A DNA stretch of 64,000 nt. Origin: a virus. The stretch is from positions 1 through 64,000 of the IMG/VR virus record IMGVR_UViG_3300005534_000011; one strand, given 5' to 3'. Position numbers and translations under genes: made by a program. The notes below the pieces were generated by a model. It was given only the letters and a program-made list of their open reading frames with translations, did not search any database and was not told the origin of the DNA. This document shows, piece after piece, positions 24,098 through 43,893 of the stretch. Positions within the stretch are counted from its first letter, which is position 1. Each line of letters begins with the position of its first letter.

Positions 24098-24518
24098 GGG
24101 GAGTGGTCTTATAATTCTCTCGATCCCACTAAACTGCCAAGGAAACCCCCAAAAAGGGACCCTGATTCACCCTCCCCCCGGCCCTCCCGGACACTACCCC
24201 CACCATCCATAATAGAACAGAATCACTAGTCACCCCAGTGTATCACAATCAATTCCGAAACACCATATAGTTTCGAACCATCCGCAATCGATTCCCAATC
24301 CTTTGCATCATATCCAACCCACTCTATAAGCTCCTACAAGGGCCATAGCAGCCGCGATAGCATCAAACCCTACCCAATGCATCAAATAGTATTCAATCAA
24401 TCTCCTATCAATCCTATATCGATTCCTATGTATTGAAACAAATTGATTGCATCAAATGCTTGACAACCTATCACAGTGGTATAGAATGATGATCATCCAA
24501 ACCAATAGGAGATACCAA

Positions 24519-24899
24519 ATGAGTTACAAGGATCTAGAAGCCGAGATAAAGGCGTGGGCGAATCTGGAGGCTTATGCTCATCAGCAGAAGCTAGAAGCCG
24601 AGGAAGCTAAGCGACAAGCGAAACGGGACAAGCGGGATAAGAAGTTGGGGAAACCGGGGAAAGGTCTGTTGGTAGCCAAGCTTCCCGCTCCGAAGTTAGA
24701 CCGACCGACCAAGATGTATAAACGCATTACGATTGAATGCAGGCCGATACAGCACAGGAAGTGGGGCGAACCGGTCGAGGTTACATATGAGGTTCAAGCC
24801 TTGACAGATGCGGTTGCCGAGGTGGCAGCGATCAAGCAAGCAAGGGTTGACGGTTATAGCTTTGATCGGGTTGTACATATAACCACGTTTGAAAAGTGA
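24519..24899 (+). CDS. basic hypothetical protein
   Basis: TTGACA promoter at 24460, AGGAG RBS, terminator downstream. Confidence 0.6.
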   Translation: MSYKDLEAEIKAWANLEAYAHQQKLEAEEAKRQAKRDKRDKKLGKPGKGLLVAKLPAPKLDRPTKMYKRITIECRPIQHRKWGEPVEVTYEVQALTDAVAEVAAIKQARVDGYSFDRVVHITTFEK

Positions 24900-25087
24900 A
24901 AGGATGTAGGTGTTTGAAAAGCCTTGAGAAATCAGGGCTTTTTGGTATAGGGTAGAATCGCTGGAAAAATAAATTGATTCTACCCCTTGACATCACAATA
25001 GAATCAGATAATCTTACCACAACAAAGCAACATTCATTCAACCACCCAAACGGGTTAAGGCTTTACTAATCGATCAAGGGGAATACC

Positions 25088-25552
25088 ATGCGCCAAGTAT
25101 CTAAAGCAGCTCAGGCAGAAACCATTTCTACTAACGTACTCGAAACCGCATCGACCGCCCTGTCACTGGCCGAAGATGCGTTGATCAAAGCAAAGGAAGC
25201 TTTGGCCGCTGCCGGTGGTTCTGGTGGGTCCAAGTCGGGAAGGGGATCGAAAGGTAAAGGTGGGGATCAAACCCCTGATAACGCTTCCAAGGGCTCGGCG
25301 GGTCGTAACCCTTCACCGGAACAGCTTGAGATTCGTTCCGCAATTATCGAAGCTTTGCAATCCGGTGAAATCAAGTTCTTTACCATCGCCGAAGTGACCG
25401 AAGCCATGAAAGCTGACCGTATCCAAACCCGGAACGCGGTCAACTATCTGGAAGCTCAGAACATGGTTGTTCGGTACGGTGAAAAACTCCCAGAAGGTCG
25501 CGGCCAGCGGGAATTGATCTACAAGGCCGGAGTAGTTCCAGTCCCGGCCTAA
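25088..25552 (+). CDS. winged-helix DNA-binding protein
   Basis: FTIAEVTEAMK...TRNAVNYLEAQNMVVR...GRGQRELIY; Gly/Ser linker; own promoter and terminator. Confidence 0.65.
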   Translation: MRQVSKAAQAETISTNVLETASTALSLAEDALIKAKEALAAAGGSGGSKSGRGSKGKGGDQTPDNASKGSAGRNPSPEQLEIRSAIIEALQSGEIKFFTIAEVTEAMKADRIQTRNAVNYLEAQNMVVRYGEKLPEGRGQRELIYKAGVVPVPA

Positions 25553-25807
25553 TGGGTTGGTAATGTATAAAGCCCCTTAACCGGGGCTTTTTGTTGTCTA
25601 GGGTTCTAGGGATTTGATATAAACCCATATAGCAACATTCCCCAGTAATCCACACCAATCATCAGATAGACTCCTAAACCCTCTCAAATCCCCTTAGAAT
25701 CAACCAAAACCATATAGCAACATTCTAACCCTAAACCCATTCCCACACTTGACATTCGGAATTGATGGTTTAAGGTATAGGAACATTCCAGAACATATAG
25801 GCATCAC

Positions 25808-26035
25808 ATGAAACTCTTCTATGTAGCAATCTTTCTGGTGGTAGCAAGTCTCCCTGTAGGCTTTATCGGTATCTATGCAGCTTGGGACAGAACACCACCT
25901 CAATACCGCTTATTGCAGTTGGATCAAATCATGCATACCGGTGGAATGGTCTATCTCGCCATGGTCGCCGGATCGGTTCTGCTGTTTCTGGTCTGGTTGT
26001 CCCTTCCACTGAATCGCAGGGATTATCGGGTTTGA
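25808..26035 (+). CDS. small membrane protein
   Basis: Two TM helices; TTGACA promoter at 25749. Confidence 0.55.
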   Translation: MKLFYVAIFLVVASLPVGFIGIYAAWDRTPPQYRLLQLDQIMHTGGMVYLAMVAGSVLLFLVWLSLPLNRRDYRV

Positions 26036-26219
26036 TTTGATTGGGTATTCAATAGGTGAAATATCCCTCAATTTGATGGAATACCAGTGAATTCTGCTGA
26101 ATGCTTTCGAGAGTGTTAGGGAATTTGTGTGGTATTTGATGGAATTACGGGATTTGATGGAATTTTTGTTGCATCAAATTTAGCGGACGAACTTGGACTA
26201 ACGAGAAAGTCTATCATTT

Positions 26220-26262
26220 AAGTGTAACGTTTTCATTCCACTGGAACGGTTTCGTTACACTT
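26220..26262. repeat. inverted repeat/hairpin in a non-coding region
   Basis: AAGTGTAACG ... CGTTACACTT with inner TTCC-ACT-GGAA. Confidence 0.7.
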
Positions 26263-29143: not shown

Positions 29144-29242
29144 TGAAAAGCCTCGGGAAACCGGGGCTTTTTATTTGGGGTTGGGTATTGCATCAAATCC
29201 ATAGGGTGTTATACTGACCCTACACCAACCGAGGGGCAGACC

Positions 29243-29452
29243 ATGAACCGTAAAGAAGCATTCCTAAAGATCAAATCCGTAGCGGCGGATGATGGGTTTA
29301 CCAAACTGGATGTTCTGCCGATGTTCAAAGGTGTAGCACCTTCGGTTGTTAATGGCTATTTGAAAGCCGCGTATGAACTTGGGTTCATTACCCTGAATGC
29401 AGGCAACCCGCTGTGCATGTACCCGACCATCAATCTGCGCAACCTGAAATAA
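29243..29452 (+). CDS. small hypothetical protein, possible wHTH
   Basis: Cassette promoter and GAGG RBS; SVVNGYLKAAYELGFIT. Confidence 0.55.
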   Translation: MNRKEAFLKIKSVAADDGFTKLDVLPMFKGVAPSVVNGYLKAAYELGFITLNAGNPLCMYPTINLRNLK

Positions 29453-29465
29453 TTAGGAGGTAACC

Positions 29466-29783
29466 ATGGAAATTTTGGTTCATAACAGTATCAATTTCGT
29501 TAATGGTTTGGCGATGAATATCACCAACCCAGATACATTCTCGGTCCCAAGCCTTGACGAAAAGCTGGCGGTAAAACCGGGTGGTCATATCAAGATTGGG
29601 GTTAAGGTGAACTCCCATAACATCAATTGCGAACGGTTTTGGGGTCGGGTGGTTCAAAACGATACCGATAACCATATCATCACAGTGATGATTGACAATG
29701 ATTTGATTTGTACCGACATTCATGGGCTGCGTTATGATGATTGTATTCAAGTGCCCTATGATGTCGTGTTAGATGTAATTTGA
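29466..29783 (+). CDS. DUF2314-like protein
   Basis: G.HIKIG...ERFW..V...IDND; GGAGG RBS. Confidence 0.55.
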   Translation: MEILVHNSINFVNGLAMNITNPDTFSVPSLDEKLAVKPGGHIKIGVKVNSHNINCERFWGRVVQNDTDNHIITVMIDNDLICTDIHGLRYDDCIQVPYDVVLDVI

Positions 29784-29860
29784 TCAAATAGGGGTTTGCA
29801 TTTGATGTAAACCCTTGCTATACTGCTATCACACCAACCAAATCAAGGAATACCAAAATG
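29779..29860 (+). promoter_or_regulatory. palindromic cassette promoter
   Basis: GGGTTTGCAT-TTG-ATGTAAACCC, TGC-TATACT, CACACCAACCAAATCAAGGAATACCAAAATG. Confidence 0.8.
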
Positions 29861-30121
29861 GCTATCGTCAAAGCTGTTGCAAACACCCAAGACCTGAACA
29901 AAAACTGTGTTCTAATCTCAAAGGTTGTTAATCAGGTGGACGGCAACACGGTGCTGGTTTATATCCTGTTCATCAATAACAAGCCGGTCAACCACACTGC
30001 AAGCTTTGACCGCGCACTGGGTTGGTATGACAAGAATGTGACCGACGTTGTTAACCCGGTTGAAGTGGTTGAAATCGGCCATTATGCGTGTGGTACTATC
30101 CACATCAAAGAAACCCGATAA
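29858..30121 (+). CDS. hypothetical protein (single-gene cassette)
   Basis: Lies between two near-identical cassette heads. Confidence 0.65.
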   Translation: MAIVKAVANTQDLNKNCVLISKVVNQVDGNTVLVYILFINNKPVNHTASFDRALGWYDKNVTDVVNPVEVVEIGHYACGTIHIKETR

Positions 30122-30202
30122 ATTTGATCAAATAGGGGTTGCATTTGATGTAACCCCTGCTATACTAACCCCATACCAACCAAATCAAGGAATACCAAAA
30201 TG
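30122..30202 (+). promoter_or_regulatory. palindromic cassette promoter
   Basis: GGGGTTGCAT-TTG-ATGTAACCCC, TGC-TATACT; same leader as 29779. Confidence 0.8.
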
Positions 30203-30517
30203 TCTATCATCAAAGCAATCGAAATCAAAATCGTCAAAGCTGGCACTGAACATTTGGTCCACCATCAAGCGGCGATAACCCTTGAATTCGCCCCTCAGTT
30301 TGTAGGCGATATCATCAAGTCCATTTGTGGTTGCGAGCTGGACGATGACGACCACAACGATTTGAACGACTTGCATGTTTATGGCGTAATGGCGAGCCGG
30401 TTCGGTAAAGATTGGGAATTCTATGTAACTGCCAAGGTTACCTACCCCGATGATATCAATTTGGATTCCAACGTGGATTCGGATATGTTCGCCCGCAAAT
30501 ATAAGAACACTTTGTAA
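30200..30517 (+). CDS. acidic hypothetical protein
   Basis: Cassette head and RBS. Confidence 0.65.
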   Translation: MSIIKAIEIKIVKAGTEHLVHHQAAITLEFAPQFVGDIIKSICGCELDDDDHNDLNDLHVYGVMASRFGKDWEFYVTAKVTYPDDINLDSNVDSDMFARKYKNTL

Positions 30518-30786
30518 TGACCAAGCGAAAGAGGCTCTATAAGCTGTTGCGGAAGCTCTGGAAGTTTCTTTGATGGTATCCAACCCGGTCTAATCAGCCG
30601 GGTTTTATTTTGCCTAGACATCTTGACAACCATACAAAAAATATGAGAAAATGAATTGACGACCTATATTTGTGGTTGGCATGAAAATTTCCGTGAACTA
30701 TTTGATGCAAATAGCTTTAAACCGCTTGTATTGCATCAAATTAGGAGTATACTGACCCTACACCAACCGAAACAGGGAATTCAAAC

Positions 30787-31227
30787 ATGAACGCTTTCAC
30801 CCAAGCCCACACGATGACTAAAGAAATCATTCAAGCTGGTGATAACTACGCGGCCACGTTTGCCCTGTGCCTGAAACACATCAAGGGGTCTATCATGACA
30901 GAAGCTCAGAAGCTGGCAGCACAATTCATAGCCGATGCTAAAGCCCGCATAGTCGAGTTGGAAGCGTTCAAATCGACTAACCCAAGCGGTTATGTCGTAA
31001 TCACCGGGGAAGATGTTAAAATGTCCCTGCAATTTGATGCAGGTTCGGTAAAGGTTTGCAGGATCGAATCCGCTACCCGATACAGCGAACGCCGCATAGC
31101 AGACGCTATCGCTTCTCAAGTACGGAATGGTGCCAATTACAAGGCCAAATCCATTTGGTTGATTGATCAGATTGTAAATGATATCGAATGTCAACAAGAC
31201 CTGATCCGTCAATGTGAATCGATTTAA
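30787..31227 (+). CDS. hypothetical protein
   Basis: Cassette head GTATTGCATCAAAT..TATACT; AH.MTK..I..GDNY.ATF.LCLK motif. Confidence 0.65.
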   Translation: MNAFTQAHTMTKEIIQAGDNYAATFALCLKHIKGSIMTEAQKLAAQFIADAKARIVELEAFKSTNPSGYVVITGEDVKMSLQFDAGSVKVCRIESATRYSERRIADAIASQVRNGANYKAKSIWLIDQIVNDIECQQDLIRQCESI

Positions 31228-31245
31228 ATCGATTTAAAATAATCG

Positions 31246-31319
31246 AAATAGGGGTTGCAATTTGATGTAACCCCTAGTAAACTGCAATTACACCAATCGA
31301 AATGGAAGTTGGCAAAATG
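31246..31319 (+). promoter_or_regulatory. palindromic cassette promoter (near-identical to 40015-40090)
   Basis: AGGGGTTGCAATTTGATGTAACCCCTAGTAAACTGCAAT. Confidence 0.75.
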
Positions 31320-31556
31320 ATCATCATCAAAGACGAGTTCACTAGCGGCGCTCAGGTAAGCATGGAAATGGATAAGGACGCGGGCGAGCTGTTCGTTTTC
31401 CATTGCCCTGCCGGTCAAGGCTGCAAGGTCAATAAATGGCCTTTGGATAGCTATCATATGCCCATTGCGATGGCGTATTACACGGAATGCTGCACAATTG
31501 AACAGCCAGAACCAGACGACATCGATTCAACTTTTGCATGCATGTGTGACGAATAA
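31317..31556 (+). CDS. hypothetical protein (single-gene cassette)
   Basis: Lies between cassette heads. Confidence 0.6.
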   Translation: MIIIKDEFTSGAQVSMEMDKDAGELFVFHCPAGQGCKVNKWPLDSYHMPIAMAYYTECCTIEQPEPDDIDSTFACMCDE

Positions 31557-31566
31557 CCAGCGTCAA

Positions 31567-31639
31567 TATAGGGTTTGCATTTGATGTAAACCCTTGCTAG
31601 AATCTAATCACACCAACCAAATCAAGGATTATCGAAATG
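31567..31639 (+). promoter_or_regulatory. palindromic cassette promoter (near-identical to 39652-39729)
   Basis: GGGTTTGCATTTGATGTAAACCCTTGCTAGAATCTAATCACACCAACC. Confidence 0.75.
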
Positions 31640-31846
31640 GCTACCGAAACCCACCTGACCCGCGAAGTGTTCACCCTCAATAAGCAGTCTGTTGGCGTCA
31701 AAGTTGCTTATAATGGTTGGTGTGCCACCTATAACGGTGACGACTGTTCGTTGTCTGATATCCCGGCTCAGTACCACGAAACCATCCGTAAGGTGGTGAC
31801 CGTAATTTGCCTCGAAAATAACTGGGTTGATATGGGGGCGGTGTAA
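31637..31846 (+). CDS. hypothetical protein
   Basis: Cassette head and RBS. Confidence 0.6.
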   Translation: MATETHLTREVFTLNKQSVGVKVAYNGWCATYNGDDCSLSDIPAQYHETIRKVVTVICLENNWVDMGAV

Positions 31847-32061
31847 TGAGAGAACAATTAATCAAATTGATACAAGCGTGGCAAACTTTGGGGTTTATTA
31901 ATAGTACCCTAATGCGACCTGTCGATTATGATAGGCTGGTGTCGTCCAGACGTGCTATAGAAGTGGCTGTTAAAGCGCTCGCCGGGGTTAGCAGTTCGGC
32001 CAGCATCATTGAAGCTATGCAGGTCGTGGGTATTACCCATGATGACCTTGACCATCAATAA
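31846..32061 (+). CDS. hypothetical protein
   Basis: TAATG coupling. Confidence 0.5.
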   Translation: MREQLIKLIQAWQTLGFINSTLMRPVDYDRLVSSRRAIEVAVKALAGVSSSASIIEAMQVVGITHDDLDHQ

Positions 32062-32066
32062 GGGAT

Positions 32067-32306
32067 TTGATCATGGCAATCGGCGAACGCAAAAGCATCA
32101 AAGGGGCACCATCACTCAAGGTTTTTGAATCGGTGATGATTAACCCACACGGTCGGGCAATCCGGTTGGACATCTGGAAGACCGACCAGACCGATGTTAA
32201 TGATAGTATTTTCGTTTTCTGTGCCAATGATTTTATCCAGACCTACGACACCGACAAGACCCTTTTGCTTGTCGAGCTGGCCGCGTACATGGTGGATAAC
32301 CTGTAA
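32067..32306 (+). CDS. hypothetical protein
   Basis: AAGGGA RBS; ends at the next cassette head. Confidence 0.55.
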   Translation: MIMAIGERKSIKGAPSLKVFESVMINPHGRAIRLDIWKTDQTDVNDSIFVFCANDFIQTYDTDKTLLLVELAAYMVDNL

Positions 32307-32376
32307 TTTGATGCAAAAGGGGTTTGCATTTGATGCAACCCCTGTTATACTGGTATCACACAAGGGAGATACCACC

Positions 32377-32547
32377 ATGTTAGACAACAAGTTTTCAAAG
32401 GGCGACAAAGTTCAAGCCGATGGCCCTTTCTGGCTTACCGTCACCGAAGTGCGTGCTAATGGCTGGTATAGCTGCATTTTCGGTGCCATCGGCGGTTATG
32501 CTGGTTCTTTCCGTGAAACCCAACTTTCAAAATATACTGGAGCATAA
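32377..32547 (+). CDS. small hypothetical protein (YodC-like)
   Basis: F.KGD.V...GP..TV...Y.C.F; cassette head at 32307. Confidence 0.5.
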   Translation: MLDNKFSKGDKVQADGPFWLTVTEVRANGWYSCIFGAIGGYAGSFRETQLSKYTGA

Positions 32548-32912
32548 CATGGGCCTTCTCATTAGCGTTTACCGTTCGGCTGGCTGTGACTGCACTAACA
32601 ACGGTGTGTCGTCTCGTTATGATCAACTGACCCTAGTTAATGTGGGTGGTCCTTTCGAGCCATCCAATACCGCCCCGGCTGCGTGGTTGGTCAAACATCG
32701 TACAATGCCGGGTGTTGTGTATATCGTGTGTGAAGACCCGGCAACTAGCAAACGTGCCCATATGGCTGGTGGGAACTTCGGCGGTACGAGTGATTCCCGG
32801 TTTTCATCTGAAATGGCAAAACTTACCGGCTGTGCAAACTGGCACGGTGCTGCGAAGATTCACGACCGATACGAATAACCTACCACAACTTTCAAAATAT
32901 ACTGGAGCATAA
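32521..32912 (+). repeat. 27-bp direct repeats (32521-32547 and 32886-32912) flanking one gene
   Basis: CAACTTTCAAAATATACTGGAGCATAA twice. Confidence 0.85.
32549..32878 (+). CDS. hypothetical protein
   Basis: DCTNNGVS ... MAGGNF..TSDSRF ... IHDRYE. Confidence 0.65.
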   Translation: MGLLISVYRSAGCDCTNNGVSSRYDQLTLVNVGGPFEPSNTAPAAWLVKHRTMPGVVYIVCEDPATSKRAHMAGGNFGGTSDSRFSSEMAKLTGCANWHGAAKIHDRYE

Positions 32913-32915
32913 ACC

Positions 32916-33155
32916 ATGTGGTACGAAATCAATGTTTCACTAAAAGGTAAGCACTTTTTCGCAACCGCCAAACGTAGCATTACCGACCGGGAGCAACTGA
33001 AAAAAGCGTATACCGTGTTTGCGGAAAAGTTCCCGGCAAGTGAAGGCTATGAACTGACTGTTACCAACTATGCGGTATCGGGTTATACGGTTGACCCAAT
33101 GACAGGCGAGCCGCCACGGCAGACCATCGGCGATATGGAACTCGACAAGGATTGA
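32916..33155 (+). CDS. hypothetical protein
   Basis: YEINVS..G.HFFAT...KFP...GY. Confidence 0.6.
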   Translation: MWYEINVSLKGKHFFATAKRSITDREQLKKAYTVFAEKFPASEGYELTVTNYAVSGYTVDPMTGEPPRQTIGDMELDKD

Positions 33156-33156
33156 T

Positions 33157-33360
33157 ATGAAATGCCCAAACTGTAAACAAGAATTGATGTTAAATTCACC
33201 GGTAGAATACAACGTGGAAACCTACCGAAAACCCGCTGTAGGTGTTGCGTTATGTTGTGGGGTTGGTATCAGGCTTGAGGTTGTTACTACCTTTAAAGCT
33301 ACGGTATACACCGGTAAGGCCATCTTTGACGACTGGGGTTATGAAATCAAACCAGCGTAA
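33157..33360 (+). CDS. hypothetical protein
   Basis: CPNC...CC; followed by a terminator at 33368-33395. Confidence 0.5.
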   Translation: MKCPNCKQELMLNSPVEYNVETYRKPAVGVALCCGVGIRLEVVTTFKATVYTGKAIFDDWGYEIKPA

Positions 33361-34719: not shown

Positions 34720-34791
34720 TTTGATCAAATAGGGGTTGTATATGATGCAACCCCTTGCTATAATTACCTCACACAAACCGGAGTACATAAC

Positions 34792-35046
34792 ATGCACAAC
34801 ATCCAAGCGGTCAACGACAAACTAACCGAAGGTAAAGCCACTGACCTACTGTTTACCGGGTTTCGTCAGGCCATGCGTGATGGCATGAACTATGCCCATT
34901 TCAATAGTGGGTGTGATGCGTTCGGGTTGGATGTTGTCGAAGTCCCAAGGGTCAACCAACTTAACGGCCAAAAATATTGGTCCCTTCGGTTGTATTGCGA
35001 TTGTAAATTGGTTGCAACCGCCTACGCGGATGAACATGATTTGTAA
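34792..35046 (+). CDS. hypothetical protein
   Basis: Palindromic head and GGAG RBS. Confidence 0.6.
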   Translation: MHNIQAVNDKLTEGKATDLLFTGFRQAMRDGMNYAHFNSGCDAFGLDVVEVPRVNQLNGQKYWSLRLYCDCKLVATAYADEHDL

Positions 35047-35106
35047 GGGCTTGACAATCCAGTTACACCTGATAGGCTGAATCACTTTTTACCTTGAGGC
35101 GTCACC

Positions 35107-35301
35107 ATGCAAACCACGACCGTATCTCAAACCGCCTATAACCCCTCTCAGGGCGTTGTAAGCAGCCAACCCATGCAACCGGCCTACCGTGCCGAGTACA
35201 ACCCACTGTCGGCCCGCTGGATGGTTCTGAGCGAGTTTGATGTATGTGTGCAGGCTGGTTTGAGCAAAGTTGCGGCTATTGCATTAGCCGAAAGCCTCTA
35301 A
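35107..35301 (+). CDS. hypothetical protein
   Basis: TTGACA promoter at 35051; terminator downstream. Confidence 0.5.
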   Translation: MQTTTVSQTAYNPSQGVVSSQPMQPAYRAEYNPLSARWMVLSEFDVCVQAGLSKVAAIALAESL

Positions 35302-35421
35302 AGATTTGAAAAGAGCCCCGAAAGGGGCTTTTTGTTGTCTAAAAATAATTTGATGTAATCATTGACATAACAATTCTGTTCTGTATAATTCAATCCATAC
35401 CAACCAATCGGATTAATCAAA

Positions 35422-35694
35422 ATGCTTACTCAAACCAGCCTGAAACATCCAGTAATGCAAGACCGCATCCTGTCCGGGTTGATCGAAGCCCAGACCAAGG
35501 CCGAAAACGCCGGTCATGGTCGCGCCTACGTGGCTAATTCGAAAGGTAACAACATCATGCGGGTGGACGTGTTCAAACCGGGCCAAGTCGATTGGCTGCC
35601 GAAGGGTGGTGTTATTGTGTACGGTGAAAGCTCCCGGACCATTACCAACATGGTGGAATCCGCGTTGGGTTCTAAGCTTTCCGACTTGATTTGA
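35422..35694 (+). CDS. hypothetical protein
   Basis: TTGACA-N17-TATAAT promoter; terminator downstream. Confidence 0.65.
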   Translation: MLTQTSLKHPVMQDRILSGLIEAQTKAENAGHGRAYVANSKGNNIMRVDVFKPGQVDWLPKGGVIVYGESSRTITNMVESALGSKLSDLI

Positions 35695-35698
35695 TCAT

Positions 35699-35757
35699 AA
35701 GCCCCTGATTCTAGGGGCTTTTTATTGTCAAAAAATATTTGCATCAAATGCTTGCAA
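35699..35757 (+). terminator. terminator plus promoter-head module (copies at 37212, 38822, 40699)
   Basis: AAGCCCCTGATTCTAGGGGCTTTTT..TGTC.AAAAATATTTGCATCAAATGCTTG. Confidence 0.8.
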
Positions 35758-35811
35758 TGGTCTGAAATGGGTGTAGACTACCTATATCGAAACCAAACAG
35801 AGGATTCAATC

Positions 35812-36042
35812 ATGGCCCGTCGCGAAATACAACTGACTTGGAAAGGCGAAGATGGTGTAGAATTCACCTCTAACACCGCTATCAATGGAACAGAAGACGA
35901 AATCATTGATTATTACATGAATAATCAATTTAACGTTGGTAAGGGTCCGAACGATTATATGGCGGTTTGTGTTGCACTGGATTTTACCGATGTTAAACCG
36001 GTTGATGTATTCGGAATTAATAACTCGTTTGGGGGTCTGTGA
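35812..36042 (+). CDS. acidic hypothetical protein
   Basis: T.INGT..EI..YY....FN motif; GAGGA RBS. Confidence 0.6.
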   Translation: MARREIQLTWKGEDGVEFTSNTAINGTEDEIIDYYMNNQFNVGKGPNDYMAVCVALDFTDVKPVDVFGINNSFGGL

Positions 36043-36374
36043 TGCTCTATACATTGCTTGGTTTGTACCTGATGACCGGTGCTACTAGCCCAACTGATAC
36101 TGTCGAGAAAATCGAGGGCATGCATTTGGAACAATCGGTTTGTGTTCAACGTGCCAAAATTCTGGCGGATGAATTGGGTGGGGCTCGCTGCCGACCAGAA
36201 GAGGAACTAGACGAAAACACACCGTATCGGAATACCCTCACAAAGATTCAATTGCCATCGGGTCGGGTTATTGAGTTGTGGTACACCCGTGGGGTTTGGT
36301 CTTATCCTGCTGATTTGGTTGATGAGGATCGGGAGCTTATCGAGCAATACACCCAATTCGAATACAGCCGCTGA
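36039..36374 (+). CDS. hypothetical protein with N-terminal signal/TM
   Basis: Coupled ORF. Confidence 0.5.
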   Translation: MMLYTLLGLYLMTGATSPTDTVEKIEGMHLEQSVCVQRAKILADELGGARCRPEEELDENTPYRNTLTKIQLPSGRVIELWYTRGVWSYPADLVDEDRELIEQYTQFEYSR

Positions 36375-36453
36375 AAATAAAATCGGAATAGGGGTTGTAT
36401 TGCATCAAATTGAGATTATACTAACCCCACACCAACCAAATCGAGTAAAGATC

Positions 36454-36699
36454 ATGAAAACCGCGACCAAGACCTACGCCATAGTTGACGTTAAAAAATG
36501 GTGGTTCTCGCACTTCACCATCAATGGCAATGGGGTTTATAGTTTCACCATCCAAACCGAAACCGGTGAAATCATCAGCGGCAAGACAGCTCCCGGCCTG
36601 AATCAACATCTGTCGATGAGTCCTGCTAAGCTGGCAGACGTGACCATCAGCACAACCCCGACCGGTCGTATCAAGATGACCAACGCCAACCGGGCCTAA
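36454..36699 (+). CDS. hypothetical protein (single-gene cassette)
   Basis: Between heads at 36387 and 36704. Confidence 0.6.
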   Translation: MKTATKTYAIVDVKKWWFSHFTINGNGVYSFTIQTETGEIISGKTAPGLNQHLSMSPAKLADVTISTTPTGRIKMTNANRA

Positions 36700-36778
36700 A
36701 GAATTTGATGTAAGGGGGTTGCTAATTGATGCAACCCTGTTATAATTCCAGCACACCAACCGAAATAGGGATTCAAAA

Positions 36779-36991
36779 ATGGCTATCGCACACGACATAA
36801 CCTGCAAGAACTCGACCAATCCTAAAGGCTTTCACGTTAGCTTTAATGGTCGCCGGGCTGGGGCGTTGGGTGTTACCTATGCCGTGCAAATCAACGTTTA
36901 CGCGGATACCGAAGAAATGGCACACACCGCCATCTATCAGGAATATGAACACCTGATGTTCGTCAAAATCACTCCTATCAATGGTGATTGA
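36779..36991 (+). CDS. hypothetical protein
   Basis: F.GR..GA.G..Y ... YEH motif. Confidence 0.6.
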   Translation: MAIAHDITCKNSTNPKGFHVSFNGRRAGALGVTYAVQINVYADTEEMAHTAIYQEYEHLMFVKITPINGD

Positions 36992-36992
36992 T

Positions 36993-37223
36993 ATGACCAC
37001 TAATCGGGTGTTCAAGAAGGGTGACACCGTAGGTTTAAAGGCATCGGTTCGTAAAGGTTGGAAGTGTCCAGAAGGCCGAGAGGACAACCAAACCGCCGAT
37101 ATCAGAGCGACCTACAGCGATAAAGGCGAATGCTGGTTAGACCATGATTTACACGGCTGCAAGTATTGGAATCAAGAGGATTTGATTTTGATTCAAGCGG
37201 TTGAAGACAAGACGCCCCAATAG
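36993..37223 (+). CDS. hypothetical protein
   Basis: L.G..YWN..DL motif. Confidence 0.55.
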   Translation: MTTNRVFKKGDTVGLKASVRKGWKCPEGREDNQTADIRATYSDKGECWLDHDLHGCKYWNQEDLILIQAVEDKTPQ

Positions 37224-37319
37224 GGGCTTTTTGTTGTTCAAAAATATTTGCATCAAATGCTTGCAATAGGTTGGAAACCGGTTATAATGAACCACACCAA
37301 CCAAATCAAGGATTCAAAA

Positions 37320-37727
37320 ATGAAAACCCAAGCCGAACTGATTCAAGAAGCTGTTACCAACGCCGCCGAAGGTTGTGCAATATTCAATGCAAAAATGGTC
37401 GAACTGTTTCCGGTGTATATTGCACTGGCACGCCCTCGTAAGTTGCTGGGTGATAACGTAGAAATCGAATTCGCCAACGTTTCCAACCGTTCCGAATGCT
37501 CTAGCGGGATTCTGATGAATGCTAGTGGTCATATGCGGTTTATGATGCAACTTAACGAAGGTGTTAATACCGTCGCAAATTCGTTTGATATTGACTTATT
37601 GACGTGGCATCATCAAGCACGTAGTGTTTTGAAGTTCCGTCGAATCAAAGGCAAGACCCCAGCCGAAGCCCTGCAAAAGTTGGCGGTCTGGTTTGAAAAG
37701 AATCAGGACATTATCAAGGCAATCTAA
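37320..37727 (+). CDS. hypothetical protein
   Basis: Cassette head at 37248 and AAGGA RBS. Confidence 0.65.
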   Translation: MKTQAELIQEAVTNAAEGCAIFNAKMVELFPVYIALARPRKLLGDNVEIEFANVSNRSECSSGILMNASGHMRFMMQLNEGVNTVANSFDIDLLTWHHQARSVLKFRRIKGKTPAEALQKLAVWFEKNQDIIKAI

Positions 37728-37732
37728 TTGGG

Positions 37733-38086
37733 GTGGCTATGGAAAAGGATTTGTTAGCACCGTGTGACAAGTGCCCCAGCATCACCGATAAGGAAGTGGG
37801 TTATATCGCTGGGGCTTCTGTAATGCTGTTTAAGACGTTCAACGGATCAAGCCGATATGTTTATCAGGTGCAAGGCCGTAACGTCGCTGTGATGCATATA
37901 GCGGCTGATATGAGCAAAGCTGCTAGGGTTGTGTCGGTGTATGCATTACCAGATTATAAAAATGCCGGGTTGTTCCGAAAGTTGTATTACAGTGCCATGA
38001 AAGATCATGGCCGGGTCAAGTTAGGTGATGAATTGTCTAACTGTACTCAAGTGCTCGACTTAATCCACGAAATCAAAAACATCTAA
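37733..38086 (+). CDS. GNAT-like acetyltransferase
   Basis: VSVYALPDYKNAGLFRKLY resembles acetyl-CoA binding motif A. Confidence 0.45.
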   Translation: MAMEKDLLAPCDKCPSITDKEVGYIAGASVMLFKTFNGSSRYVYQVQGRNVAVMHIAADMSKAARVVSVYALPDYKNAGLFRKLYYSAMKDHGRVKLGDELSNCTQVLDLIHEIKNI

Positions 38087-38096
38087 GGGCTTGATC

Positions 38097-38315
38097 ATGT
38101 GTCGCAAATTCATCAAAAATTCTGATATGCGGGAATTGGTCAACTTTGCCGAGGGGATCGGCTATAGTGTGGAACTAACCAAGGGTAAGCACCTAAAGTT
38201 TACCCTTCCCGGTGTGTCGCCGGTCTTCACAAGTTCAACCCCCAGTGATTACAGAAGCTGGGCTAACTGTCGAGCACGCTTGAAGCGGTTGGTGTCTGGG
38301 CTGATGGCGGCCTAA
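38097..38315 (+). CDS. HicA-like protein
   Basis: L..FA...GY.V...GKHLKF......V..SSTPSD.R. Confidence 0.55.
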   Translation: MCRKFIKNSDMRELVNFAEGIGYSVELTKGKHLKFTLPGVSPVFTSSTPSDYRSWANCRARLKRLVSGLMAA

Positions 38316-38391
38316 AAATAATTTGATGCAATCCCTTGACGGGGTGGTTAGGTTGCATCATACTGACTACACAATCAAAGGAGCTACACAA

Positions 38392-38610
38392 ATGAAACTT
38401 ACACCATTGCAAGCAAGTAAGAAAATCCGCGAACATCTGAATCAAGGTAACGGCATATACATTGATGGTCGTTACTATGATGTCAGGGTACATGCTGGAA
38501 TGTTGCAGGTTTCCGACTTTCGAAGCTGGTTTGTTGTGCAACCCGGTGCCGAGTTCCGTAACAGCCACGGTCGTACACTCTTCACCTATGAACCGATAGA
38601 AGGGGCTTGA
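38392..38610 (+). CDS. hypothetical protein
   Basis: TTGACG..CATACT promoter; AGGAG RBS. Confidence 0.6.
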   Translation: MKLTPLQASKKIREHLNQGNGIYIDGRYYDVRVHAGMLQVSDFRSWFVVQPGAEFRNSHGRTLFTYEPIEGA

Positions 38611-38611
38611 C

Positions 38612-38818
38612 ATGGCGAACCAAATCACCGCTATGCAAACTCAAGTTGATGAGCTTACAACCCGCATCAACTTAGCTGATGACAGCTTGCAATCATTCCG
38701 GGCGTATCTGTCAAGTCCGAAATTCACCGGGGACAGTGAGTTACAAGGTTACATATCAATTCAAGATGTTGAACACCATCTAGCCGCTATCTGGCGGGAG
38801 TTACACGGTTTGAATTGA
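38612..38818 (+). CDS. hypothetical protein
   Basis: YL.SPKF...GYI...DV motif. Confidence 0.55.
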   Translation: MANQITAMQTQVDELTTRINLADDSLQSFRAYLSSPKFTGDSELQGYISIQDVEHHLAAIWRELHGLN

Positions 38819-38934
38819 TCCAAGCCCCTGATTCTAGGGGCTTTTTATTGTCCAAAAATATTTGTATCAAATGCTTGCATTACATCAAATAGCTGTTAGA
38901 ATGAACTCACACCAACCGAAACAGGAATTCGAAA

Positions 38935-39147
38935 ATGGTCATGAAACTGGAACAAATAACCGAAGCTCTGAAAAACAAACATTTGGAAACTGTCAAGAAG
39001 GAACTATGTCGGTATGGTGATATCTTGGATGTGCAGGACTGGGAAGACCACCACGGGGCACATCGTTGTTATACCATTCAATACCAAAATGCAAGTTTCG
39101 ATATATCTATGTTGAACGGTGCAACCATCAATATCAAACAGGGTTGA
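38935..39147 (+). CDS. hypothetical protein
   Basis: Cassette head at 38861. Confidence 0.55.
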   Translation: MVMKLEQITEALKNKHLETVKKELCRYGDILDVQDWEDHHGAHRCYTIQYQNASFDISMLNGATINIKQG

Positions 39148-39151
39148 ACAT

Positions 39152-39328
39152 ATGAAATTTCAAGACACCTTTACAGACCGGCTGACCGGACAAAAGTTTA
39201 CGGTTGAAATTGAAATCAACCAAGGCGAAGTGTCGAAATTGTTAGCCGCTAGGGCATGGGGCAGCAAGTCCGGGAAAAGTCAAGCCCTGAATGGTGATAT
39301 CAAATGCAAAATTATTAAACGTGAATAG
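39152..39328 (+). CDS. hypothetical protein
   Basis: Ends at the next cassette head. Confidence 0.5.
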   Translation: MKFQDTFTDRLTGQKFTVEIEINQGEVSKLLAARAWGSKSGKSQALNGDIKCKIIKRE

Positions 39329-39403
39329 CATCAAATAGGGGTTGCATTTGATGCAACCCCTGCTATACTAACCCCATACCAACCAAATCGAGTAAACATC
39401 ATG
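39328..39403 (+). promoter_or_regulatory. palindromic cassette promoter (perfect 11-bp arms)
   Basis: AGGGGTTGCAT-TTG-ATGCAACCCCT, TGC-TATACT. Confidence 0.85.
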
Positions 39404-39646
39404 GCACGTCAAACCCGCTACACCGTACAGGCACTACGCGCAGATATCAAAGAATTGAACGAGACTTTGAAGGCAACCGGGTACTATCTGGGGGTTGAAT
39501 GCCGCAACGGTTACACCGGGTTGGACGAATACCGGGTTAGTACAGACCCGGCTAAGCGTGATACTTGCGTTCGCAATATCGAATGTGGGTCGCCCCGCGA
39601 TTGTTGGGAAGCGGCTCGCCTGTATACCCCACGCGATAACAGCTAA
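39401..39646 (+). CDS. hypothetical protein (single-gene cassette)
   Basis: RNGYTGLD motif. Confidence 0.6.
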   Translation: MARQTRYTVQALRADIKELNETLKATGYYLGVECRNGYTGLDEYRVSTDPAKRDTCVRNIECGSPRDCWEAARLYTPRDNS

Positions 39647-39726
39647 AATAGTTTGATAAAGGGTTTACATTTGATGTAAACCCTTGCTAGAATCTAATCA
39701 CACCAACCGCTTTAGGAGCTTTCAAA

Positions 39727-40017
39727 ATGAAAAATCTGATTCTTGGTATCGCACTGGTAACCGCATCCTTCGCCGCTGTTGCGGATGGTCAACAAAAATG
39801 CGCAGAATTGGTTCACACCAGAACTCTGGCCCCAATCTCCGAATTCTCCGACGCAACCGCCGCCACTCCTTATTACACCGTGGCTCGCCAAAAAGGCGGT
39901 TCGACCACTACCTATCAATGTGATGGGATGGGTAACTATCGGCAGTTGATGGATTACGGGTGGTCCATCTGGCGCACCGGTAACGAATGGAACGCTGTTC
40001 ACTGGATGCAGGGTTGA
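39727..40017 (+). CDS. secreted hypothetical protein (single-gene cassette)
   Basis: Sec signal peptide; AGGAG RBS. Confidence 0.6.
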   Translation: MKNLILGIALVTASFAAVADGQQKCAELVHTRTLAPISEFSDATAATPYYTVARQKGGSTTTYQCDGMGNYRQLMDYGWSIWRTGNEWNAVHWMQG

Positions 40018-40087
40018 TAAAAAGGGGTTGCAATTTGATGTAACCCCTAGTAAACTGCAATCACACCAACCGATAGAGGGTCCGAAC

Positions 40088-40354
40088 ATGTCTTACATCG
40101 TCGCCAAAGCAGCAAAGGCCCTCCTAGACAAAGCTCTGGATGAGGCGTCGGCGGAACTTCGACAATTCGATCAGTTCAAGGGTGCAATGGGCATGACCCC
40201 GGACCATATCAAAGCTACCCCGGAGTTTCGGAAAGCAAAACATGCATTTGATGTAGCTTTTCAGACTTCCCGGAATTTTAACGGGGACTTTAACAAACGG
40301 TACAAAAAAGAAATTGCCGCCGACCGTCGCGCACGCTACAATCAATCCATTTAA
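40088..40354 (+). CDS. hypothetical protein
   Basis: G.MG.TPD.IK..PEFR.AK ... R.FN motif. Confidence 0.65.
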   Translation: MSYIVAKAAKALLDKALDEASAELRQFDQFKGAMGMTPDHIKATPEFRKAKHAFDVAFQTSRNFNGDFNKRYKKEIAADRRARYNQSI

Positions 40355-40684: not shown

Positions 40685-40824
40685 CCGAAATTGATGAAAA
40701 GCCCCTAGAATCAGGGGCTTTTTGTTGTCCAAAAATATTTGCATCAAATGCTTGACCGGCCCTCAAATTGATGTAAACTAACCATATCGAAAGGCAAAAC
40801 GCCTTTTCCAAGGGAGTCAAGACC

Positions 40825-41646
40825 ATGGCAGTAGTAGATAGCAAAGACCTGTACACCTTCATATCGACCGGCGACAAAGTGGCTATGTACACCCTGCGGG
40901 TTATGTGTCTGTGCCGGGTTCAGGTGGGTGATTCCGCATTCAATGAAATGCGTGACTATTACATTCAAAACCTGTCGAACGACAAGGCAACCGCCGAAGC
41001 GAAAGCGGCTGAAATGTCCGGCCTGATGAATCTGGAATTTAAAGGGAACGCGGATTTTGAATTGAATGAAATCCGTCGAATCCGTGACGAAATGGCATCC
41101 GAAAAACGTGAAGCGGCAGAACGGGCGCATCAAGAGCGTATCGCCGAATGGGCGGCAGAACGCGCAGAACAGATTCAAGCTGGTGTGTTCATCATGGGTA
41201 AACATACCGGTAAAACCGCCGCCGAAGTCGCTGTAGAGGATTTGGGGTATCTGTTCTGGCTGGCCGGTGAAGTGGAAGCAAACGGCAAACTAGGGATTTG
41301 TGCGAAAATCGCCGCTAATTACATCCAGTTGACCGGGGTTGAACTCCCCGGCTACATCGGTGAAGTTGATCAACCAATTGAAGTAACCGCAACCCTGAAG
41401 CGTGTGTTTTGGACCCAATCCCAATACCCTACATTGATGCACATTGCAACTACCGTACAGGGTAACGAGATTGTGTTTTTCAGCGTTGCTCAGGGCTTCA
41501 AGGAAATTGAAATCGGCCAGACCTTCACCATCACCGGCACCGTTAAAGAACAGAGAGAAGGCTGGGGCGGTACTAAACAGACTGTTATCGGCAAACCTAA
41601 GCTCCCTAAGCCAGCCAAAGCGGCAAAGGTTAAGAAGGTGGTTTGA
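40825..41646 (+). CDS. putative nucleic-acid-binding protein (GKH.G...YL.W module plus OB-like C-terminus)
   Basis: MGKHTGKT..EVA..D.GYLFW; G.TF.I.GTVKE..E..G.KQT.I. Confidence 0.55.
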   Translation: MAVVDSKDLYTFISTGDKVAMYTLRVMCLCRVQVGDSAFNEMRDYYIQNLSNDKATAEAKAAEMSGLMNLEFKGNADFELNEIRRIRDEMASEKREAAERAHQERIAEWAAERAEQIQAGVFIMGKHTGKTAAEVAVEDLGYLFWLAGEVEANGKLGICAKIAANYIQLTGVELPGYIGEVDQPIEVTATLKRVFWTQSQYPTLMHIATTVQGNEIVFFSVAQGFKEIEIGQTFTITGTVKEQREGWGGTKQTVIGKPKLPKPAKAAKVKKVV

Positions 41647-41677
41647 CAGGACATCAAAGCGGGTCTAAGGTGGTGTT

Positions 41678-41767
41678 AAGCGTACACGGATGTATGCGGT
41701 TGTTGGGCGTCCACTCCCAACCGCCAGCCCCTTGCCCGCAAGTCTAAAAGCTTCGCGGGCATTTTTA
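41678..41767 (+). ncRNA. candidate ~90-nt small RNA with a CsrA/RsmA-type GGA hairpin
   Basis: TTGACA-N17-TAAGGT promoter; hairpin GCGTACA-CGGA-TGTATGC; second hairpin; terminator GCCCGC..GCGGGC-ATTTTT. Confidence 0.5.
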
Positions 41768-41953
41768 TGTCAATTTTTAGAGTATCGAAATGAAATATCA
41801 TCAAAATTTGATGTTGCATTGCATCAAAACCTATGGCAAAATGATAGTAATCGGAGCATATACCCCATTTCTGGCGGTCATGATCTGGTCTGAAATCAAA
41901 AACATTTTGGGTTGATTTTAAAAAGGAGTTTGATAGAATAGGAAGGGTAAGAC

Positions 41954-42313
41954 ATGAAAGCCAAGAATTTGATACATGAATTGATTCCAGCGGAAAAACG
42001 GCTGGCTAAGATTGATGAAATCGACCGGGAGTTAGAGCGGCGGTTAGCAGCTCAGGAAATCACCCTTGTCGAGTATTTCGAAACCAAACAACCCTTGACA
42101 GTCAAGCGGTTTAAAGAGTTTCGGTTAGTTGCACGGGCTCGCGGTTGGAACCTGAGCGAAAACCTTGATGTACCCGAGGTGTCAGAAGCTCTAGAAGAAC
42201 CCGAGGTGTTAGAGGTTCTGGAACCAGCCAAGCCGGTGCCCATTCGTCAAAGGCTGTTAGGCTTCTTGATTGTATTACTGATGATGTGTGCTGTTTCGTG
42301 GGTTTGGCGGTGA
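41954..42313 (+). CDS. C-terminally anchored membrane protein
   Basis: PEV.E.LE repeat and a C-terminal TM. Confidence 0.55.
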   Translation: MKAKNLIHELIPAEKRLAKIDEIDRELERRLAAQEITLVEYFETKQPLTVKRFKEFRLVARARGWNLSENLDVPEVSEALEEPEVLEVLEPAKPVPIRQRLLGFLIVLLMMCAVSWVWR

Positions 42314-42392
42314 TACATCAAACCCAAAAATGATGCAAAAGTGCTTTACAACCCAACTGGGTTTGATATAATCAACCTACTTACTTAAAAGG

Positions 42393-42917
42393 ATGTACAT
42401 CATGACCAAATCGACCGCTACCCAAGCCGCCAAACCAGCTAAAGCCAAAACCACTGCTGTGTCGGCACCCAATCTAACAACCGTGGGTCCGGTTGTGGAC
42501 AAGACCCCGCCGAAGCGTGTACGCAAGCCAGCCGCACCCAAGGCGGTCCCAACCACACCGGTTCAAGTTGCCCCAGTTGTTCCTGTAACGCCTGTAGCAC
42601 CTGTGATCGTTATCCCGGTCAAAACCGGTGCAGGCCGTCCAATCTCGGCAGAAGCCGCGAAAGTTCGTCGTCGGGTGGTGGGTGTGTGGTTCAAACTGGT
42701 CGCGGCTGGTGAAACCGAGGTGACGGTTAAGGCAACCGCCAAAATTGTCAAGCTCAAAAAGGTCACTGTATCCAACACTATCCGTTGGGCTGAATCGGTT
42801 GGACTCATTACCCGAATCGGTTACAAGTTGAAAGCCGGTCCCGGTCGTAAAGAAGTGTTCTATACCGTCAACCCGGCCAAGCTGACCGAAATGGTAGCGA
42901 TTCCAGAGGCGGCGTGA
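42393..42917 (+). CDS. winged-helix DNA-binding protein with Pro/Lys/Ala-rich N-terminus
   Basis: VTVKATAKIVK...VSNTIRWAESVGLITR...GPGRKEVFY; resembles 25088. Confidence 0.6.
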   Translation: MYIMTKSTATQAAKPAKAKTTAVSAPNLTTVGPVVDKTPPKRVRKPAAPKAVPTTPVQVAPVVPVTPVAPVIVIPVKTGAGRPISAEAAKVRRRVVGVWFKLVAAGETEVTVKATAKIVKLKKVTVSNTIRWAESVGLITRIGYKLKAGPGRKEVFYTVNPAKLTEMVAIPEAA

Positions 42918-43134
42918 TGTTCTGTCGCATTTGTGGGGCTCGCCTGTACGTGAAGGGGGTTTGCACCATCTTTTGCCCTAACCGTAAGTGTGGGGTTGGA
43001 CCACCCTTTACATAAGACACCTGAAACCAAATCAAAGCCCCTTAACCGGGGTTTTTTGTTGTCTGTAGAAAAGTGGTTGACCTAGTGACAGATTCGTGTA
43101 TAGTGCCGCCCATTCTGTTTTGAATAGGTGACCC

Positions 43135-43788
43135 ATGAATCAAAATACAATCCTAGACCTGTTCCGACATCATCAGGACCGCAACCTAACCGATTACAGG
43201 GCGCTCAAGTTGGCTTTCTGGTATGACATGCAACAAGCCGGGGCCGAGCTGTTAGGGGCCGGATGGTATAGCACGGTGTGGGCAATTGGTGGGCGAGTGT
43301 ACAAGATCAATTCGGGATCGAACGGCGGGCGTGATGGGTTTGTGCATTGGGTTGATGGTATCCGTGGGTTTGATTCCAACCCCCACTTGCCTAGGGTTGG
43401 TTCAATCGCTGTGGATTATGAGAGGTATTGCATCGAATTAGAGCCCCTGACCCCTTTGCAGCCTAGCGACTTCGAATTGATGGGGTTTGCTGGATTTGAT
43501 ACAACTGTTAAAGGGCTGGCTGATTATGTCCGGGGATTGCCTGATTTGGTCGAGGCTATCGAGCTGGCGTATGGGATCGTACAACGGGTGAACCCCGAAC
43601 ATGACTATGGCCCTAACCCTGATTTGTTCTGTAAGCTGTCGTCTATTGACTTTTCGAACGGTTCACGGTTCCCTAATTTGATGAAACGCGGGGATACACT
43701 GGTACTTAACGATCCGGTTGCCTATAGTGCTGAATCAATCGAGCCCTATAACATCAAATTGCGTCAAAGTCTAGGTCTAGCGGCCTGA
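43135..43788 (+). CDS. Ser/Thr protein kinase-like (T7 gp0.7-like)
   Basis: LGAGWYSTV, VYKI, NPHLP, NLMKRG..LVLNDP; own promoter TTGACC-N17-TATAGT. Confidence 0.65.
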   Translation: MNQNTILDLFRHHQDRNLTDYRALKLAFWYDMQQAGAELLGAGWYSTVWAIGGRVYKINSGSNGGRDGFVHWVDGIRGFDSNPHLPRVGSIAVDYERYCIELEPLTPLQPSDFELMGFAGFDTTVKGLADYVRGLPDLVEAIELAYGIVQRVNPEHDYGPNPDLFCKLSSIDFSNGSRFPNLMKRGDTLVLNDPVAYSAESIEPYNIKLRQSLGLAA

Positions 43789-43893
43789 TCTTTATTTGAT
43801 GAAACCTATTGACCCCGGTGAAAGCTGGGGTTATAATTTGATCATGAAGTAGCGGGGTTGTGAACCCGGAGATAATCAAGGAGGGTGGACGTC

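Follow-up and report, generated by a model that had tools for sequence, protein, structure and literature searches.

PeSL-type promoter-hairpin heads probably allow small early gene cassettes to be shuffled by homologous recombination in an uncultured T4-like phage

Promoter-early stem-loops (PeSLs) are the only elements that have been proposed to let T4-type phages shuffle small accessory genes without an integrase, and the published support for them comes from three phage pairs. PeSLs have lineage-specific consensus sequences across the T4-like phages (PMC2839356, PMC4122927), and for phages RB49 and phi1 their promoter and terminator activity, as well as the formation of minicircles, have been proven experimentally (PMC2839356). 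Here, we analyze a stretch of viral DNA of 64,000 nucleotides (the window), which corresponds to bases 1-64000 of the 75,886-bp IMG/VR virus contig IMGVR_UViG_3300005534_000011 (completeness estimate 44%). The window contains an array of small gene cassettes, each preceded by a repeated promoter-hairpin module called the head. A preliminary description of this DNA had likened the heads to PeSLs and had proposed that they form a larger, sequence-distinct system. We conclude, with a probability of about 0.8, that the heads are PeSL-type composite elements, in which an early promoter and a stem-loop are combined and between which homologous recombination shuffles the cassettes.

The likeness to the PeSLs of RB49 and phi1 (Arbiol 2010) was borne out both by the layout of the sequences and by hybrid heads. 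In both cases the elements are present in a T4-type phage and are concentrated in a hyperplastic region of small ORFan genes. In both, the stop codon of the upstream gene lies within an AT-rich stretch, the sigma70 -35 and -10 boxes are near consensus, a GGGG...CCCC stem-loop with G-T pairs is located between the promoter boxes or overlaps them, and the element closes on its 3' side with a Shine-Dalgarno (SD) sequence and an ATG; conservation extends over about 100 nt in total. They also share cassette differences between relatives in which two elements are replaced by one chimeric element, and crossovers that map either to the interval from the -10 box to the ATG or to the stem-loop and its vicinity. 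The topology of the hybrid heads described below is the one that was drawn for ORF192 in the comparison of RB49 with phi1 (PMC2839356).

The window encodes RIIA, RIIB, a long tail fibre and an exonuclease. According to RIIA, the closest cultured relatives are the Pseudomonas phages Milchi and Astolliot (45% amino-acid identity), and the gene order around the array is conserved with respect to these two phages. Based on the rIIA, rIIB and tail fibre genes and on the synteny with Milchi, we assign the window to a T4-like phage that is uncultured and belongs to a little-studied, Pseudomonas-phage-like lineage. The block containing the heads, in which the genes are small and all located on the + strand, is the early hyperplastic region of this phage. 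A pattern scan of IMG/VR resulted in the identification of two genomes having the same head, and a protein scan added one more. For the comparisons we used three uncultured genomes, G000, G001 (97% complete) and G002 (complete, 183,070 bp), which share a colinear backbone and are 65-88% identical to each other, no available pair of uncultured genomes being closer than about 75-88%. A megablast search with 12 kb against 50,697 phage records gave no match, and two scans of metagenome contigs with the cassette proteins did not find a relative. No Rfam family was detected within the window at the gathering threshold, and a tRNA scan found none.

The repeated heads are real, since their motifs occur far above chance and are matched by profiles. 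The motif CACACCAACC (at most one mismatch) was found 31 times, compared to an expectation of 4.3, and most of these matches are on the + strand at 29.2-40.1 kb; the 9-mer TTTGATGYA, the box by which the heads had originally been recognized, was found 45 times, compared to an expectation of 2.5. With an nhmmer profile built from 11 seed copies of the repeat, 17 strong heads were detected between 29171 and 40087; each of them is on the + strand and ends at an ATG. After iteration of the profile there were 18. The preliminary description had counted about 30 heads over 20 kb. This number is reached only when about 12 looser sigma70-like promoters, some of them with a box or a partial leader, are added, which widens the block to 24460-43837; the full layout is present at 17-18 sites in 11 kb. 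The statement that heads are absent outside the block was essentially right, as the entire 75.9-kb contig contained just two other, weak, matches, at 15321 and 71812. The near-identical pairs of distant heads listed earlier are likewise all genuine, with 86-98% identity over 43-100 nt: 63 of 66 positions are identical for heads 30127/39330, 52 of 55 for 31246/40019, 51 of 53 for 31566/39656, 42 of 43 for 29185/30728, 66 of 70 for 35686/38810 and 86 of 100 for 35691/40691.

To define the anatomy of a head, we anchored 70 heads from the three genomes on their -10 box. The 5' part consists of an AT-rich stretch (AAATAA type) that holds the stop codon of the upstream gene. It is followed by the G/C-clamped consensus AAAGGGG-TTG(C/T)AT-TTG-ATG(C/T)AA-CCCC, which forms a hairpin of 8-15 bp of the form GGGGTTGCAT-TTG-ATGCAACCCC that includes the -35 box. 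This box, TTG(C/T)AT, is separated by a spacer of 16-17 nt from an extended -10 box, TGnTATACT (TATACT in 49 of the 70 heads, the TG extension in 40). After six variable bases comes the leader ACACCAACC(G/A)AAAC, which is C/A-rich and G-poor, lies at the predicted +1 and starts 6 nt past the -10 box in 52 of the 70 heads. The head ends with an SD sequence (GGGA, AGGA or GGAG) and the ATG, the distance from the -10 box to the ATG being 31-34 nt in 54 of the 70 heads.

A stem of 8-15 bp with a predicted energy of -13 to -22 kcal/mol, whose GGGG/CCCC clamp overlaps the -35 box, was found in 45 of 76 heads. The box named in the preliminary description proved to be the loop plus the 3' arm of this palindrome, and the -35 box resides in its 5' arm. 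The loop sequence is usually TTG and sometimes CAA, and this variation in part explains why the box had been seen in two orientations. Heads with the hairpin were designated class I. Class II heads have the box in reverse orientation without the palindrome; they follow a canonical terminator, or they contain the box as direct repeats that do not form a hairpin. Two known signals were considered for class II heads by inspection of the sequence and rejected. The motif TGCTTG resembles that of a MotA-type middle promoter, and it lies about 19 bp from the -10 box, according to a hand count, compared to 11-13 bp for MotA boxes. A site for integration host factor (IHF), ATCAANNNNTTG, fits class II heads only.

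The mispairs in the stems show on which strand the hairpin is constrained. Stem pairs were scored symmetrically, such that G.T and A.C were treated alike, and 59 of the non-Watson-Crick pairs were G.T and 21 A.C (p = 2.5e-5); for the heads of Milchi the corresponding numbers were 25 and 2. The excess of G.T demonstrates a constraint on the + strand, because such a bias would be expected for a structure formed by this strand and not for a duplex palindrome to which a dimer binds. The hairpin is thus under selection on the + strand, most likely as an RNA that ends the upstream transcript. Because it lies upstream of the start predicted for its own promoter, it would be transcribed only when transcription continues into it out of the cassette before. 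This arrangement is explained most economically by a terminator, an attenuator or a 3'-end protector of the upstream message that overlaps the next promoter.

The heads are a trait of the whole lineage and are confined to one region of the genome. In G002 all 37 profile matches on the + strand are located at 47.8-69.3 kb, a region of 21.5 kb, and G001 contains 35 heads in the region that is syntenic to it. The same architecture is also seen in the syntenic region of Milchi, with 24 heads, and in that of Astolliot, with 20; these heads read GGGGTTGTAT-loop-TACA(A/G)CCCC followed by TGTATACT, and their leader differs from that of the window. The paper on Milchi makes no mention of the heads (PMC11780129). 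When a head was used as a BLAST query against the 50,697 phage records, nothing significant was found beyond a weak match to Milchi, in agreement with the earlier statement that the heads are distinct in sequence. A fourth uncultured relative, L027 (IMGVR_UViG_3300042013_000056, 182.9 kb), contains 14 more-diverged heads within its positions 1-10000, the 10 kb upstream of a conserved gene encoding a 273-aa protein; its cassette with the fam96 homologue is positioned differently than in G001.

Several observations place genetic exchange within the heads. The colinear backbone of the three uncultured genomes is broken by insertions, deletions and replacements of cassettes and by a few moves. For the closest pair, the genomes B and C, the non-homologous segments have 72 ends in total, of which 42 are located in heads, compared to the 21% expected (p = 4e-12); for six of the segments this is true of all four ends. 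Seven times, a cassette that is extra in one genome is flanked by two heads, to both of which a single head of the other genome can be aligned. As the triplet alignments revealed, this single head is of hybrid nature: on its 5' side it matches, together with the preceding gene, the upstream head, and on its 3' side, together with the following gene, the downstream head of the extra cassette. Halves of heads are also inherited together with the neighbouring gene. Taken over all heads, pairs that have only the upstream gene in common show above-background likeness from the AT-rich stretch through the hairpin, and pairs that have only the downstream gene in common show it from the hairpin loop onward. 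These alignments place the switch of the exchange between the hairpin and the leader.

The cultured pair gave a similar picture. The aligned blocks of this region in Milchi and Astolliot are mostly 82-95% identical (76% for the leftmost 2.8 kb), and 19 of their 44 indel ends lie in heads, one replacement having all four of its ends there. Within one genome, pairs of heads are 94-98% identical over 43-70 nt amid unrelated genes, and orthologous genes of different genomes are 70-80% identical. Concerted evolution by genome was not seen, the identities between heads of the same genome and those of different genomes being about equal.

Various results weigh against our interpretation. The heads had been predicted to be the sites at which relatives differ, and this is correct insofar as breakpoints do occur inside heads, including the hybrid single heads, and incorrect insofar as some of the turnover takes place at junctions without a head. 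Thus, clear events were found at tight head-less junctions (fam13|14, a move of fam25, and fam45), and 3 or 4 of the 11 indels between Milchi and Astolliot involve no head at all. Junction-level Fisher tests did not show synteny breaks to be significantly more common at heads than at head-less junctions, which we attribute to the genomes being too diverged and the gene calls too noisy. About two-thirds of the core junctions have a head, so the enrichment is modest when compared with "any gene boundary". For the recombination argument, we therefore rely mainly on the hybrid heads, which are in register, and on the co-inheritance of half heads. As to the hairpin, it is missing in about one-third of the heads (class II), the hairpins lack a canonical U-tract, and a simple terminator scan accepts just one of them. 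Circular intermediates may be expected if cassettes are excised, and neither circles nor deletion joints were seen in the contig-level data of one run at about 10x, in which the unitigs of the source break at the longest head repeats without revealing joints. Finally, a search of sequencing runs found this DNA in a single run, probably its source, and in no RNA run.

As stated before, the window contains no integrase: the domains Phage_integrase (PF00589) and Resolvase (PF00239) had no match in G000, G001 or G002. A RecA/UvsX-like open reading frame (ORF) is present. The lack of an integrase or resolvase, the UvsX/RecA-like ORF and the scattered positions of the crossovers are in keeping with homologous rather than site-specific exchange. 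We propose that each head would act as a strong sigma70-type early promoter whose transcript would begin about 7 nt after the -10 box, at the conserved leader, and that the hairpin in the read-through RNA would end, attenuate or protect the message of the upstream cassette. The common layout would thus provide every cassette with the same insulated expression unit. At the same time, the presence of some 75-85 nt of near-identical sequence in direct orientation every 300-1000 bp would offer a substrate for crossovers. The phage's own homologous recombination machinery would cross over between heads, and cassettes would be deleted, inserted, replaced or moved while one intact hybrid head remains.

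The heads also differ from the PeSLs described so far. Those of RB49 and phi1 show no detectable sequence similarity to them and comprise five subclasses; the heads have one dominant geometry with the -35 box within the 5' arm. Unlike the RB49/phi1 elements, the heads have a -35 box TTG(C/T)AT and a -10 box TATACT with a TG extension, a C/A-rich leader at +1 and a 9-mer that is over-represented genome-wide, and they are confined to a single region. Promoter, terminator and minicircles are proven for RB49/phi1 and are predicted for the heads. The studies of T4/PST and KVP40/nt-1, which cover PeSLs and the related PmSLs (Comeau 2014, PMC4122927), establish that the PeSL consensus differs from one T4-like lineage to the next, and show that indels, replacements and displacements between relatives cluster at the elements. 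Degraded or half elements are common there, as they are here, and the events we found that involve one head only match that picture. In those phages a more AT-rich stem-loop precedes the promoter, in contrast to the G/C-clamped hairpin overlapping the -35 box in our case, and no variant of a Mot box was seen here. The idea of a separate system did not hold: every sequence-level feature by which PeSLs are recognized is present in the heads, and their consensus was already known to be lineage-specific (PMC2839356, PMC4122927). That the system is larger than those described was not established either.

Two related genes deserve attention, because they bracket the array in the window, in G001 and in G002. 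The first, to the left of the array at 25088..25552 (+), encodes 154 aa, and the second, to its right at 42402..42917 (+), encodes 171 aa. Both proteins have a low-complexity basic N-terminus rich in Ala, Pro and Lys and a C-terminal domain predicted to be a winged helix. An AlphaFold2 model of the first has the topology H-b-H-H-b-b with a predicted local distance difference test (pLDDT) score of 70-88, and its top Foldseek matches are the winged helices of ROK, MarR, ArsR and PadR proteins, with weak E-values (0.006-0.03). A sequence search of the PDB with the two paralogues was suggestive only (E = 0.26), and Pfam searches with them yielded only noise. Milchi has one homologue of the paralogues, located just upstream of the gene for the conserved 273-aa protein. 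The box TTTGATGYA itself also occurs in the window beyond the array, between 954 and 62753 (for instance at 954, 2190, 3245, 5975, 13861, 45815 and 60293). Outside its array, G002 contains 60 copies compared to about 4 expected, an approximately 15-fold excess, in both orientations and in several reading frames; most of them are within genes, and several are in spacers of the tRNA cluster (158-173 kb). This genome-wide excess suggests a signal at the DNA level. With a low probability in our estimation, a phage protein, for which the winged-helix pair is the candidate, might read the box and thereby time the cassettes together or target recombination to their junctions, in which case the heads would not be mere passive stretches of homology; if true, this would be a dedicated protein-guided system of cassette exchange or regulation in a lytic phage.

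The alternative that we take most seriously, though we consider it doubtful, is that TTTGATGYA/TRCATCAAA is an operator, with the winged-helix proteins as candidate binders, that co-regulates the early promoters, for example by shutting them off, and that the heads remain similar mainly because this binding is maintained. The box is indeed found at fixed places and in either orientation, namely in the spacer and at about -75 from the ATG, with one or two copies per head. Class II heads retain it as direct repeats without a hairpin, the 9-mer is in excess throughout G002, and the predicted winged-helix paralogues border the array in three genomes. In class I heads, however, the box is merely the loop plus 3' arm of the hairpin. 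Its variable Y is the partner of a G.U pair, and the predominance of G.T over A.C implies selection on one strand instead of a duplex palindrome. In addition, the heads of Milchi keep the hairpin and the promoter but mostly not the box, even though Milchi has a paralogue, and the Foldseek E-values of the candidate protein are the weak ones given above. Such a regulon could be superimposed on PeSL-type elements, and a regulator that reads the box may well coexist with the shuffling role.

Less probable still is the possibility that the heads are conserved expression signals only and that recombination has no preference for them, surviving indels having to respect gene boundaries in any case. 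This would account for the non-significant Fisher tests and for the turnover at head-less junctions, but illegitimate events would rarely rebuild an intact head in register, and seven clean hybrids were seen. The half-head co-inheritance puts the exchange within the head, and the 94-98% identity of same-genome head pairs over 43-70 nt exceeds that of orthologous genes (70-80%). Integron attC arrays also consist of small unrelated cassettes in the same orientation with imperfect palindromes constrained on one strand. By analogy, a dedicated recombinase might cut and join the hairpins after they have folded in single-stranded DNA. We regard this as very unlikely: unlike integrons, the array has no integrase and a promoter for each cassette, no tyrosine or serine recombinase was found in two (near-)complete genomes, the stems are without extrahelical bases, and the one-third of heads lacking a hairpin exchange nevertheless. 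Moreover, the crossover zones are spread across the head from the -35 box to the SD sequence instead of being at one point, which favours homologous over site-specific recombination. The explanation to which we give the least credence is an artefact of metagenome assembly, by which the repeated heads would have caused chimeric joins of cassettes from co-occurring strains. It is true that, in the source run, the points at which k=31 unitigs break coincide exactly with the longest head repeats. These repeats are 30-70 nt long, shorter than the reads, the depth of the unitigs across the block varies only modestly (8.4-13.7), and the architecture and the colinear backbone recur in three other assemblies and in two finished genomes of cultured phages. 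PeSL-type shuffling between heads is the reading that we retain.

The core of the array, 17-18 full heads with cassettes of one to four small ORFs each, extends over 29176..40091 on the + strand according to nhmmer and the map of genes and heads; all features that follow are on this strand. Its first head, at 29176..29233 (31 bits), follows an intrinsic terminator (29146-29176) and has the layout TTGCAT-N16-TATACT with the leader TACACCAACC. The class I head at 29776..29861 scores 65 bits and folds with -15.7 kcal/mol; the hairpin GGGTTTGCAT-TTG-ATGTAAACCC holds the -35 box and is followed by TGCTATACT, CACACCAACC and the ATG at 29858. Nhmmer, together with folding for the first of them, identified class I heads at 30119..30203 (95% identity over 66 nt to head 39330), 31235..31319 (95% over 55 nt to head 40019) and 31563..31640 (96% over 53 nt to head 39656), and also a class II head at 30706..30789 with an inverted pair of boxes (TTTGATGCAAAT ... 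TTGCATCAAAT) across the -35 box. The class I head at 32304..32363 (nhmmer) does not have the full leader and precedes four ORFs (32377-33360). A weak head at 33404..33465 (26 bits; TTGCATTTGATGCAA, TGCTATAAT) comes after a terminator-like hairpin at 33374-33398.

Further downstream, nhmmer detected class I heads at 34213..34283, with the loop TCAAT, and at 34720..34783. The class II head at 35732..35815 (15 bits) is preceded by a terminator (35699-35720) and has the box GCATCAAATGC and TTGCAA-N16-TAGACT. The next heads found by nhmmer are one with a reverse-orientation box inside the spacer (36372..36446), a class I head that appears terminator-like in the scan too (36696..36782), and two class II heads, at 37241..37322 after the terminator 37214-37227 and at 38855..38938 after the terminator 38822-38843. 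The latter is a single head that aligns to both heads bordering three extra cassettes in the relatives B and C. The head at 39331..39403 (nhmmer and folding) is of class I with the perfect palindrome GGGGTTGCAT-TTG-ATGCAACCCC; class I heads are also present at 39645..39730 and 40014..40091 (nhmmer), the last being the final full one of the array. The looser heads were found with a promoter scan. The leftmost, at 24460..24521, has the box TGCATCAAA, TTGACA-N16-TAGAAT and the partial leader CCAAACCAA, and its homologue in G002 has the full leader. Another, at 40732..40827, consists of the box and TTGACC-N16-TAAACT and precedes the gene for the conserved 273-aa protein (40825-41646). A TG-extended sigma70-like promoter, TTTACA-N16-TATAAT, is located at 42345..42404 before the second winged-helix paralogue, and the rightmost sigma70-like promoter of the block, TTGACC-N17-TATAAT, is at 43809..43837.

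The cassettes had been said to contain one to five unrelated small ORFs. We counted one to four per head, and the 50 proteins are unrelated to each other except for three small families of paralogues. Fifteen PHROG families were matched by these 50 proteins, none with a known function, and the only Pfam match, which was below threshold, was to ExoX-like_C in the 273-aa protein encoded at 40825. As the PHROG families have no assigned function and the Pfam match is sub-threshold, the host-takeover or anti-defence role that was suggested for the cargo is a guess by analogy.

Some other features of the window were noted. The 31-nt intrinsic terminator in front of the first head is present as an exact duplicate 14 kb away (15294-15324 and 29146-29176), and this duplication explains the loose ends of the source contigs on the window. 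The leader motif CACACCAACC occurs alone at 14973-14995, at the end of the preceding ORF and 13 nt before an ATG, without a recognizable promoter; it may be the remnant half of a head or a self-standing translation signal. A non-coding gap of about 480 nt (26040-26520) contains three close copies of ATTTGATGGAAT (26071, 26134 and 26152) and one of TGCATCAAAT, followed by C/T-rich sequence before the next gene, and the non-coding gaps at 24100-24440 and 25590-25800 are unusually C-rich. On the - strand, at 51856-52728, an ORF with GGN repeats (Gly-rich, with a collagen-like periodicity of 9 nt) adjoins the long tail fibre gene. Lastly, a segment of 233 nt is present in three separate genes (10903-11135, 23486-23718 and 57946-58178) with 62-73% identity, which points to a dispersed family of paralogous genes beyond the array.

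With this lineage, the phage pairs from which PeSLs are known are joined by an example of unusual regularity and density, in which 37 heads occupy 21.5 kb of a single region. The lineage also adds hybrid heads in multiple genomes, a mapped zone of exchange between hairpin and leader and a strand-specific constraint on the hairpin; a conserved leader at +1, the fixed geometry of the hairpin over the -35 box, the confinement and the genome-wide box come on top of these. Because two members of the lineage, Milchi (host P. poae) and Astolliot (host P. syringae), are cultured, direct tests are feasible. In metagenomic phages related to them, the heads can also serve as a ready marker of where early accessory cassettes begin and end.

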